IMG/VR virus record: IMGVR_UViG_2875713109_000004
From: a virus
Lineage: Duplodnaviria > Heunggongvirae > Uroviricota > Caudoviricetes
Direction: 5' to 3' (one strand)
Length of the DNA: 18,564 bases
The position numbers and the translations under genes are program-made. Below, piece by piece: positions 7,106 to 9,457 of the stretch. The notes under the pieces are model-generated. The model searched no databases and was not told the origin of the DNA. It saw only the letters and a list, made by a program, of their open reading frames with translations. The first letter of the stretch is position 1. Every line of letters starts with the position of its first letter.

Positions 7106-9457
7106 ATGACGGTATCAACCGTAGTTGACCATAACGATTACATCGGGAACGGCGTTACGACATCCTTCCCGTACAAGTTCCGCATATTTAAGAAAACAGA
7201 TCTGGCTGTATCAGTTGTCGACCTTGACGAAAACATCACGGTTTTGGTGCTGGACACTGACTACACGGTAACAAACGCAGGGGGTTATAACGGCGGCAAT
7301 GTGGTACTAACCTCGCCACTGGCTATCGGCTGGCAGATTTCCATTGCACGCGAGCTGGCGCCAACGCAGGAAACCGACCTGCGGAATCAGGGCAAGTTTT
7401 TCGCCGAGGTGCATGAAGACGCTTTCGATAAGCTGACGATGCTGATCCAGCAGGCATACAGCGTGTTCCGCCTGGCGCTGCGTAAACCGTCCAGCATTGC
7501 GAACTGGTACGACGCCCTTAATAACTACATCAGAAATCTTCGAGACCCACGCGACCCGCAGGATGCGGCAACTAAAAATTATGTTGATACGCTGGCAAGT
7601 AGCAATCTCATCAGAACCTTACGTGTTCCTGAGTCAATCAATCAGTTGCCGGCAGCACTGGAAAGGGCAAATAAAATACCTGCATTTGATAGCTCAGGTA
7701 ATGTTATCGTTGTTCTGCCTCCTTCGGGTTCCGCGTCTGATGTTCTTATTGAATTGGCTAAGCCAACCGGATCAGGTTTAATAGGCTATGGGAACAAAAC
7801 TGTTCAAGAGGCGCTAAATTTAATTTCAGCACGATCTGATCAGTTCGATTCCCTGGAAGAATGGGCGTCTTACAACGCCGAAAAAAAGGTTTTATCATCT
7901 GGAAAGTATTCCATTAGCTCAACTTTGCATATTGAGTGCGAATATCTTGAAATTGAGTCCGGGGTTACTATAAAACCATCATCGGCAATGGTTGCGTTAC
8001 ATTTTGGGAATAACACCAGGAACCTTTTGACGATATTGACGGCAGGGGTGAGTAAGGGTTTAACAAGTTTAACCATTGATGGTGTTAAGTCAGGGGATGT
8101 TTTATGCTTCTGGAATCCATCTGATTTTTCATATTCTGGATTCAGAGATTATTACAGGCAAGGAGAATTTGTCCGCATTTCGAATTACGATGAGACGAAT
8201 GGTGTTGCATATTTTACAGGGGGGCTATGTGATTCTTACCCATCAGGAACCAGAGTTTACAAAATACAAATGAATAAGATTGATGTGACTGGTGAAATTA
8301 TCATTGATTTTCCAGCATATAATTCATCTGCTCTGGGGGTAAGCTTCGAGCAAGTGAGAGACTCTAGTCTTGACGGTTTGAGCGTACTTGTAAAGAATGC
8401 ACCGTATGCATTGCAAATTAAAAGATGTTTAAATGTTATTGGCAATATGGGCTATATAACTCAAAAATCATCACAAACTTCAGGTCTTGATTATGGTCTA
8501 TATATATTGAATAGTCAGTCTTGCACTTTTAATGGGATATTTAGTGCGGAACGACATTCTTCAACTATGACTGGCAATGGAGAAGAATGCTCTATAGTAA
8601 ATAGATATAACAGAGTTTCAGGAACTATATTGACAACTGGGCAGGGCGGGGCAGCAGCCGCAGATTTTCATGGGAATTGTGAGCACAATTCATATAGCGG
8701 GTACATGCAGGGATTGGTATTGGCAGGGCACTGTAACGGAGCGCCTAATGCGCATATTGATTTCGTACCAAACAATCCAAATTGGCCAACCGTGTTAGGC
8801 AGCGAGCTCAAGTCCTTAGAACATGACTTAAGTAATTGTAGAATATATGGCATTGGTGATCCGAACGCATCCAGCAGGGGATGCGTAGATTTCGCCGGAA
8901 ATTCTGATGCTGTTTCTGTAAGTACAGCCATATCAGGTTGCTTAAATTTATCTGAGACCGTCATAGAAACCCCTGCCACATACGCCATCAACATACGCAA
9001 CAGAGGATCACAGGTAGCATACGATATCAATCTCAACGGGATAAAAGTCAGAGGAACCAGCGGCAATAGAGCGATCAGAATCTCATCCGTTTCTGGAGTT
9101 GATGCGACTGACGTGATGCTTTCAGGCATATCTATAACGCAGGGAATGGCAATCGATGTACCGTCCTCATCAAGGAAAGTAGGGCTCAGCATGGCGGGTA
9201 AAGCAAGTGTTGTCGTTGCAAATAACGCCTCTACAGGAACCGTTTCCGTATCATTCCCATACATAATGCCTGGCGCGCCATCATCTATTGTCACAAGTCG
9301 TGGAGGTGCCGTTAGCGGAGTATCAAGCTCAAAAGTGTCAACATCTTATACCTCTGCATCATCAACTGGCTTCAGTGCTTATGCATATACTAATGATGGC
9401 TCCACGTTAACTTATGGCGCGATTACTGCTGAGGTGAACTGGTTGGCTAGTTGGTAG
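7106..9457 (+). CDS. Phage tailspike / tail fibre protein with probable beta-helix (depolymerase-type) receptor-binding domain
   Basis: Track ORF 783 aa; N-terminal GNGVTTSFPYKFRIFKKTDLAVSVVDL and DAATKNYVD motifs typical of tail-fibre virion-anchor regions; the remaining ~600 aa is Ser/Gly/Asn/Thr-rich and repetitive like right-handed beta-helix tailspikes; AT-richer than the N-terminal part. Confidence 0.8.
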   Translation: MTVSTVVDHNDYIGNGVTTSFPYKFRIFKKTDLAVSVVDLDENITVLVLDTDYTVTNAGGYNGGNVVLTSPLAIGWQISIARELAPTQETDLRNQGKFFAEVHEDAFDKLTMLIQQAYSVFRLALRKPSSIANWYDALNNYIRNLRDPRDPQDAATKNYVDTLASSNLIRTLRVPESINQLPAALERANKIPAFDSSGNVIVVLPPSGSASDVLIELAKPTGSGLIGYGNKTVQEALNLISARSDQFDSLEEWASYNAEKKVLSSGKYSISSTLHIECEYLEIESGVTIKPSSAMVALHFGNNTRNLLTILTAGVSKGLTSLTIDGVKSGDVLCFWNPSDFSYSGFRDYYRQGEFVRISNYDETNGVAYFTGGLCDSYPSGTRVYKIQMNKIDVTGEIIIDFPAYNSSALGVSFEQVRDSSLDGLSVLVKNAPYALQIKRCLNVIGNMGYITQKSSQTSGLDYGLYILNSQSCTFNGIFSAERHSSTMTGNGEECSIVNRYNRVSGTILTTGQGGAAAADFHGNCEHNSYSGYMQGLVLAGHCNGAPNAHIDFVPNNPNWPTVLGSELKSLEHDLSNCRIYGIGDPNASSRGCVDFAGNSDAVSVSTAISGCLNLSETVIETPATYAINIRNRGSQVAYDINLNGIKVRGTSGNRAIRISSVSGVDATDVMLSGISITQGMAIDVPSSSRKVGLSMAGKASVVVANNASTGTVSVSFPYIMPGAPSSIVTSRGGAVSGVSSSKVSTSYTSASSTGFSAYAYTNDGSTLTYGAITAEVNWLASW

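Follow-up and report, generated by a model that had tools for sequence, protein, structure and literature searches.

A modular tailspike with a predicted LKA1 gp49-type polysaccharide lyase module in an epsilon15-group prophage of Escherichia coli

The IMG/VR virus record IMGVR_UViG_2875713109_000004 (Caudoviricetes), a stretch of 18,564 nucleotides (nt) hereafter referred to as the window, carries on its plus strand a tailspike open reading frame (ORF; 7106..9457, 783 amino acids (aa) plus stop codon) with an ATG start and an AGGAG ribosome-binding site 9 nt upstream. The ORF matched PHROG 1640 ('tail protein') over its full length (E 1.3e-142), and its product is 100% identical to WP_224620829.1 of E. 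coli PSS-07. Combining homology, predicted fold, residue conservation, module boundaries and genomic context, we found that this tailspike consists of three segments of differing ancestry (residues 1-161, 162-228 and ~229-783). It is very probably the tailspike of an epsilon15-group phage, with a third segment that is a polysaccharide lyase module of the kind known from Pseudomonas phage LKA1 gp49. The original prediction of a mosaic tailspike, in which a conserved N-terminal anchor is joined to an AT-rich, beta-helix-like receptor-binding region, is thus largely supported, and the observation underlying it is confirmed.

The first 161 residues (7106..7588, plus strand) constitute a virion-anchor module of the epsilon15 type, with a GC content at third codon positions (GC3) of 0.62, and end in the motif DAATKNYVD (residues 153-161, window 7562-7588). 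As had been proposed for a conserved virion-attachment domain, this region matched 100 phage records, among them BUCT554 (93.8% identity), epsilon15 gp20 (80.7%) and phiV10 (77.6%), as well as SPN1S, PAT1 and TL-2011b. An N-module of the Uetakevirus type is therefore present, its identity to epsilon15 gp20 being 75.7% when the comparison is extended to residues 1-228. A further match (E 5.5e-24) relates residues 1-154 to domains D1/D2 of Dpo31, a podovirus tailspike of solved structure. In Dpo31 a trimeric coiled coil follows the beta-sandwich of D1, and cryo-electron microscopy placed D1 at the base of the virion (PMC13317679). By analogy, residues 1-161 would be the anchor attaching the tailspike, presumably a trimer, to the tail hub.

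The following neck or linker (residues 162-228; 7589..7789, plus strand) is already AT-rich (GC3 0.35) and yet belongs to the N-module of epsilon15/Enterobacter type. The alignment with epsilon15 gp20 extends over residues 1-228 and that with BUCT554 over residues 1-248, and 65 of the 119 homologue alignments stop at residues 220-229. Residues 135-231 matched the solved depolymerases 9M4C/9M4D, and the confidence of the monomer model was low throughout the neck. Judging from where these alignments end, the conserved N-terminal part in the epsilon15 lineage extends past the ~150 residues originally assigned to it, up to about residue 228.

The match to epsilon15 stops at residue 228 and the match to the tailspikes of Phapecoctavirus phages starts at residue 216, the two overlapping on LIELAKPTGSGLIG (residues 216-228; 7751..7789, plus strand), a motif common to the N-module and the receptor-binding module that also recurs in otherwise unrelated tailspikes. 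On this evidence, LIELAKPTGSGLIG is likely to be the crossover site at which the receptor-binding module was joined. Residue 161, at the end of KNYVD, appears as a second and independent recombination point, used in other E. coli prophages. The full gene was found at an identity of at least 99.9% in 5 complete E. coli genomes; about 20 further E. coli genomes match only its start, either nt 1-483/484 (about 17 genomes) or up to nt 531 or 638. The genomes with partial matches continue into a GDSL esterase, GH28-like or other C-termini. GDSL domains thus occur in E. coli prophage tailspikes that have only the first 483-531 nt in common with the gene analysed here; in our tailspike, Pfam, PHROG and NCBIfam scans found no SGNH/GDSL hydrolase domain, and the suggestion that the enzyme might deacetylate its target was not borne out. 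Seen from the other end, the receptor-binding module is rare (6 hits in a word-based search), lies behind unrelated N-termini (Tail_spike_N (PF18668), P22 Head_binding and siphovirus-type), and is found in Phapecoctavirus myoviruses and siphovirus-like contigs as well. Comparisons of both kinds, from the N-module and from the receptor-binding side, reveal domain swapping directly at the sequence level. Of the swap proposed near residue 150, the swapping itself stands, whereas the receptor-binding part does not start there but at about residues 216-228, on LIELAKPTGSGLIG, and residue 161 is a separate breakpoint. With crossovers mapped to KNYVD and LIELAKPTGSGLIG, the gene represents a clean and fully traceable case of how temperate phages alter their host range.

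Nucleotide composition changes near the first of these breakpoints. GC content and GC3 are 0.516 and 0.621 in residues 1-161 and drop to 0.428 and 0.362 in residues 162-783, as predicted for a GC-richer N-terminal part and an AT-richer remainder starting at DAATKNYVD. The maximum-likelihood single change point falls at nt 464 of the gene (residue 155, window 7569), with a likelihood ratio that was matched by none of 300 codon shuffles. GC at codon positions 1+2 is 0.46 on both sides, and amino acids with AT-rich codons (FYMINK) are no more frequent in the C-terminal part (0.254) than in the N-terminal one (0.280), so the shift reflects synonymous codon usage rather than protein composition, which points to a different ancestry of the two parts. 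The G/S/N/T-rich character ascribed to the C-terminal part was also recovered (37.5% of residues 162-783 vs 26% of residues 1-161). AT-richness is strongest over residues ~180-510 (GC 0.32-0.43), and GC returns to ~0.46-0.48 over the last 270 residues. The AT-rich block extends beyond the tailspike gene, through a Wzy-like gene (GC 0.36) and a gtrC-like gene (0.35), to about 13.6 kb. In BUCT554 the same GC3 drop is seen at the KNYVD motif (0.60 to 0.38), and in epsilon15 the drop is weaker.

The third segment was assigned to its family by homology and predicted fold. Residues 289-781 matched LKA1 gp49 (PDB 4RU4; phmmer E 6.5e-26), and residues 260-532 matched gp54 of Acinetobacter phage AP22 (4Y9V). 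The AlphaFold2 model of residues 162-783 (predicted local distance difference test, pLDDT, 83.7; predicted template modelling score, pTM, 0.79) is confident from about residue 241. Foldseek aligned it over 580-620 columns, with template modelling (TM) scores of 0.72/0.75 to 4RU4, 0.73/0.75 to 4Y9V and 0.67/0.70 to phi297 gp61 (4RU5), these last two being relatives of LKA1 gp49; the next folds scored below 0.5. To the endoglycosidases of the P22/Sf6/HK620 type there was only generic beta-helix similarity (TM 0.24-0.42). The model shows a beta-helix interrupted by a beta-barrel insertion and followed by a C-terminal jellyroll. Its cap and first rungs comprise residues 229-305 (7790..8020, plus strand; pLDDT >90 from about residue 241; 580 Foldseek columns against 4RU4). 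The beta-barrel insertion domain spans residues 306-389 (8021..8272, plus strand), as delimited by the alignment to 4RU4 and the published LKA1 borders (PMC5701251), and includes a Pfam TSP_Ig-like match (residues 310-363, E 5e-5) that stays under the gathering score. The main beta-helix follows (residues 390-689; 8273..9172, plus strand), and then the C-terminal beta-sandwich or jellyroll (residues 690-783; 9173..9454, plus strand), which aligns to the end of 4RU4, is all-beta in the model and gives a weak Pfam Gp53-like_C match. The beta-helix tailspike depolymerase fold expected from the sequence was thus recovered. Two of the checks proposed along with that expectation, a composition plot and a structure comparison, came out in its favour, the outcome set against it having been uniform composition and a fold lacking a beta-helix or any catalytic groove.

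A putative active site could be located by comparison with LKA1 gp49, for which beta-elimination was demonstrated by nuclear magnetic resonance (NMR) and mass spectrometry and an active site was proposed together with the domain borders (PMC5701251). Four of its five residues are kept: R347 (LKA1 Arg329; 8144-8146) in the beta-barrel insertion, and R483 (Arg459; 8552-8554), D520 (Asp497; 8663-8665) and H522 (His499; 8669-8671) in the main beta-helix, all of them invariant in 8 close homologues. Among 157 family members they are conserved in 142, 144, 116 and 155, respectively, and the adjacent H484 (His460; 8555-8557), also in the main beta-helix, in 153; all five codons lie on the plus strand. 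Several points weigh against the assignment. The fifth residue, LKA1 His494, is replaced by Ala517; this position is variable, however, with histidine in just 15 of the 157 members, and His494 is therefore not a family-defining residue. Identity to the characterised enzyme amounts to only ~21-25%, and the enzymatic role proposed for the tailspike derives from homology and the model. Finally, our local NCBIfam scan of the tailspike returned no family, and the local Pfam scan did not report PF22442 (Gp49_Pectate_lyase_like), though it missed this domain in clear homologues likewise. Given that blindness of the local copy, we relied on PDB homology, on the predicted fold and on precomputed domain hits of the identical protein, which do include PF22442. 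RefSeq names one copy 'phage tailspike polysaccharide lyase family protein', and an exhaustive search found 585 representatives at 50% clustering, i.e. a populated and known family. All in all, residues ~229-783 very probably form an LKA1 gp49-family polysaccharide lyase module, with the same confidence that we attach to the explanation of the tailspike as a whole. The enzymatic specificity had initially been described as unknown; the enzyme family is known, that of the gp49-type polysaccharide lyases, and its substrate can only be inferred.

By analogy with LKA1 gp49, the tailspike would cleave a polysaccharide containing uronic acid by beta-elimination. In the mechanism we propose, residues 1-161 would dock the trimer on the tail hub of a temperate epsilon15-group podovirus, residues 162-228 would serve as the neck common to epsilon15 and Enterobacter prophages, and residues ~229-783, with their right-handed beta-helix, beta-barrel interruption and C-terminal jellyroll, would bind and destroy the receptor. 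The groove between helix and barrel (R347, R483, H484, D520 and H522) may bind a surface polysaccharide containing uronic acid, whose cleavage would let the virion move down to the outer membrane. In lysogens, this target polysaccharide would be altered by the products of the Wzy-like and gtrABC genes located downstream of the tailspike gene.

The window is identical to the chromosome of E. coli PSS-07 (NZ_AP027673.1) and starts at an integrase gene adjoining guaA; the prophage it carries, inserted between guaA and yfgI, is a member of the epsilon15 group (genus Uetakevirus). Among cultured phages, Enterobacter phage BUCT554 is its closest relative at the tailspike gene. An intact version of this prophage, about 41 kb from the integrase gene to an Rz-like gene, is present in E. 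coli USMARC-50748, with window 1-6753 corresponding to 1332906-1339658 of that record and window 6752-17170 to 1365129-1375551. PSS-07 has hence suffered a deletion with its junction at 6752..6753 (no strand) and has lost 25.47 kb with the genes for replication, terminase, portal, capsid, tail and ejection proteins, including those upstream of the tailspike. Where the prophage is intact (USMARC-50748, ECE228 and CFIAFB20190172), the tailspike gene follows homologues of gp17/gp18/gp19 and precedes serotype-conversion and lysis genes, as in epsilon15; tail genes are still found upstream of it in ECE228 and CFIAFB20190172. The remnant of ~15.5 kb (window 1-15534) still has its early genes, along with intact integrase, repressor, tailspike, Wzy-like and gtrCBA genes and an intact lysis cassette. 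As to composition, the prophage backbone (window 1-6000 and 13743-15534) has a GC content of about 0.56, vs 0.35-0.43 in the low-GC block 7589-13600; the E. coli chromosome is at ~0.51 and Enterobacter at ~0.55. Since the backbone is close to Enterobacter in GC and its N-terminal tailspike homologues are mostly from Enterobacter prophages, these data suggest a backbone from an Enterobacter-type phage lineage into which a low-GC surface-polysaccharide island was inserted. Downstream of the prophage, comparison with USMARC-50748 also showed an IS3-family element at window 17171-18564 (transposase ORF 17174-18268, minus strand), between yfgH and yfgG.

In PSS-07, the tailspike gene is intact but at present an orphan, all other virion genes of the prophage having gone. 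It is fairly probable that in this strain it is a functionless relic of prophage decay, intact merely because the deletion is recent. The 25.47-kb deletion that removed every other virion gene speaks for it, as do the truncated copies of 288-654 aa found in other assemblies. The protein is identical to the copies of the intact prophages, which suggests a recent loss. Since PSS-07 retains the repressor gene as well as an operator-like site ahead of the tailspike, the gene is probably silent. On the other side, 4 of the 5 complete genomes with the full tailspike gene keep tail genes beside it. Nothing speaks directly against such a relic, which concerns only the present role of the gene in PSS-07 and is compatible with a gp49-type lyase tailspike assembled from three segments as the best explanation of the protein.

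The operator-like site in question is a perfect palindrome, TTACCTGAAAGGTAA (6987..7001, plus strand), 105 nt upstream of the tailspike ATG, with a second perfect copy at 6056-6070 in the immunity region. The more general pattern TTACCTNNNAGGTAA, with an N3 spacing, has 7 matches in the window against 0.45 expected, a number reached in none of 200 shuffles. Besides these two copies, the matches include 5276-5290, 5338-5352, 6104-6118 and 13631-13645, and the sites are distributed over the immunity region, the region upstream of the tailspike and the divergent gtrA/holin region. The equivalent site of epsilon15, upstream of gp20, shares this sequence and carries the annotation of a repressor-binding site. 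With the repressor gene still present in the remnant, repression of the tailspike gene is probable there. A sigma-70 promoter-like site, TTGACA-16-GATGAT (7041..7068, plus strand), is likewise kept; it is a consensus match only (10 of 12 positions). A search around the gene for invertible segments or long repeats, of the kind that could indicate a tail-fibre switching system, turned up only the short operator-like repeats.

Directly downstream lies the gene for a Wzy-like membrane protein of 403 aa (9606..10817, plus strand; GC 0.36), a putative prophage O-antigen polymerase located in the serotype-conversion slot, with about 8 hydrophobic segments, a Pfam Wzy_C match under the cut-off (E 3.4e-5) and the RefSeq name 'O-antigen ligase family protein'. 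An O-antigen glucosylation cassette follows on the minus strand (10851..13598), with gtrC-like (10851-12395), gtrB (12310-13239) and gtrA (13236-13598) genes, the last two encoding proteins 89% (GtrB) and 82% (GtrA) identical to those of BUCT554. In related prophages the same slot is occupied by acyltransferases (Proteus), by gtrABC only (BUCT554) or by a beta-polymerase and its inhibitor (epsilon15), or is empty (the E. coli prophage with P0077). Neither the epsilon15 beta-polymerase nor the host O30 Wzy is significantly similar to the Wzy-like protein. Close homologues of the Wzy-like protein are few, with only 7 hits overall, and each of those examined (L014, L018, L019, L020 and L021) is encoded directly downstream of a gp49-like tailspike and on the same strand, a pairing that spans four anchor types and both podovirus-like and siphovirus-like contexts. 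So constant a pairing suggests that, in these phages, destruction of the receptor and its modification are linked functions.

One could go further and regard the mobile unit as a two-gene cassette, in which a gp49-type lyase receptor-binding module and its dedicated Wzy-like polymerase would transfer host range jointly with the serotype conversion (superinfection exclusion) that matches it, the cassette having been grafted on at least four virion anchors in temperate phages, both podovirus-like and siphovirus-like. We think this unlikely. The idea that the receptor-binding module and the Wzy-like gene are strictly transferred together found only partial support: the receptor-binding module is 62-63% and the Wzy-like protein 56-61% identical in L014 and L020, whereas in L018, L019 and L021 the module is just 31-33% identical and the Wzy-like protein 63-72%. 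Such uneven identities speak of a link between two gene families and not of a strict single cassette. As the host wzy is frameshifted in three of the carriers, the same proposal holds that the prophage polymerase might also be the only working one for O30-type units, which, if true, could favour the keeping of the tailspike/Wzy-like block in a decayed prophage.

The O-antigen loci of the hosts provide a clue to the substrate. In PSS-07, USMARC-50748 and ECE228, an O30-family Wzx/Wzy cluster occupies the interval from galF to gnd, and a second cluster, near his, is of the O9 or O8 polymannan type. An O30-family wzy was found in only 17 of 5426 complete genomes, including 5 of the 5 tailspike carriers, and in 0 of the ~19 genomes whose related prophage has another C-terminus. 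Moreover, a phage-encoded Wzy-like protein fits a Wzx/Wzy-dependent polymer only and not the O8/O9 polymannan of the carriers. We tentatively put forward, as the leading candidate though with somewhat less than even confidence, the Wzx/Wzy-dependent polysaccharide that the host lineage makes from its O30-family locus (galF-gnd). Two considerations argue against it: the link between tailspike and O30 locus could reflect the clonal descent of the five carriers instead of receptor specificity, and the O30 pathway looks damaged in several genomes by a wzy frameshift, an internal stop in ugd or a wzx frameshift.

Regarding the damage itself, the wzy frameshift (A7 for A8) is found in PSS-07 (L008 14514-15739, galF-gnd region), USMARC-50748 and CFIAFB20190172, the ugd internal stop in ECE228 and the wzx frameshift in Ec1117. 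Within the 17 O30-locus genomes the host wzy is frameshifted in 3 of 5 carriers vs 0 of 12 non-carriers. The A7/A8 difference, lying in a homopolymer, may be a sequencing error or phase variation. The idea that the frameshift is a consequence of lysogeny was down-weighted, given this homopolymer and the other O30-pathway lesions, one of them in a non-lysogen.

It is rather unlikely that the substrate is another surface polymer and not an O antigen, such as colanic acid, which has glucuronic acid, or an unrecognised capsule. The colanic acid cluster is intact in all carriers examined, O30-pathway lesions in several carriers are apparently inactivating, and members of the family attack both O antigens and capsules, AP22 gp54 having been solved with a capsular saccharide bound. 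Colanic acid is nearly universal in E. coli, however, and the tailspike is confined to a rare O30-locus background, next to Wzy-like and gtrABC genes that are classic O-antigen conversion functions. Still less credible, and in our view quite improbable, is that the same fold serves another chemistry, as a glycoside hydrolase or a mere receptor binder for which no uronic acid is needed and the O8/O9 polymannan might be the substrate: many beta-helix tailspikes of similar shape are hydrolases (e.g. Sf6 and HK620, Foldseek TM 0.3-0.4), the proposed catalytic His494 of LKA1 is not conserved, the Asp position holds Asn in 25 of the 157 family members and carrier strains do have O8 or O9 polymannan clusters, but the best sequence and fold matches are the gp49, gp61 and AP22 gp54 group, named lyases by their depositors, NMR and mass spectrometry having shown that LKA1 gp49 acts by beta-elimination, the Asp-x-His, Arg-His and Arg of the lyase active site are kept, and the polymannan type differs among carriers (O8 vs O9) while the O30-family locus is common to them.

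A gp49-type lyase on an epsilon15-type anchor, directed against the polysaccharide of the rare E. coli O30-family locus, is accordingly what we would predict; if true, the C-terminal 555 residues would make a ready-made typing or depolymerase reagent for the O30-family antigen. As tailspikes go, this one is ordinary but clearly modular, an uncharacterised member of a known family that does not overturn the understanding of tailspikes.

The closest N-module is that of the Enterobacter phage BUCT554 tailspike (93.8% identity over residues 1-161 and 84.7% over 1-248), which also has gtrABC downstream; that protein has 901 aa, its C-terminal beta-helix has no detectable similarity to ours, and no Wzy-like gene accompanies it. 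Salmonella phage epsilon15 gp20 (1070 aa) is 75.7% identical over residues 1-228 and has the same gene position, the upstream repressor-operator and the downstream conversion slot and lysis cassette. Its C-terminal domain, in contrast, lacks detectable similarity to the tailspike described here, and its conversion genes, a beta-polymerase and an inhibitor on the opposite strand, show none to the Wzy-like gene. The closest receptor-binding modules in cultured phages are those of the Escherichia Phapecoctavirus tailspikes (vB_EcoM_3A1_SA_NWU and ALITA; 618 aa), with 46-48% identity over residues 216-783 and a likewise low GC content (0.43; GC3 0.32). Their phages are lytic myoviruses of 150 kb, isolated on E. 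coli O177 or K-12; the tailspikes themselves have a short and unrelated N-terminus and no adjacent conversion genes. LKA1, lastly, is a lytic T7-like phage (Autographivirinae) of Pseudomonas O5, whereas our tailspike belongs to an epsilon15-type temperate phage of E. coli; the two proteins differ in their N-terminal anchor and at His494, which is Ala here, and share only ~21-25% identity, and yet the O5-specific O-polysaccharide lyase gp49 (4RU4) has the same three-domain catalytic module.

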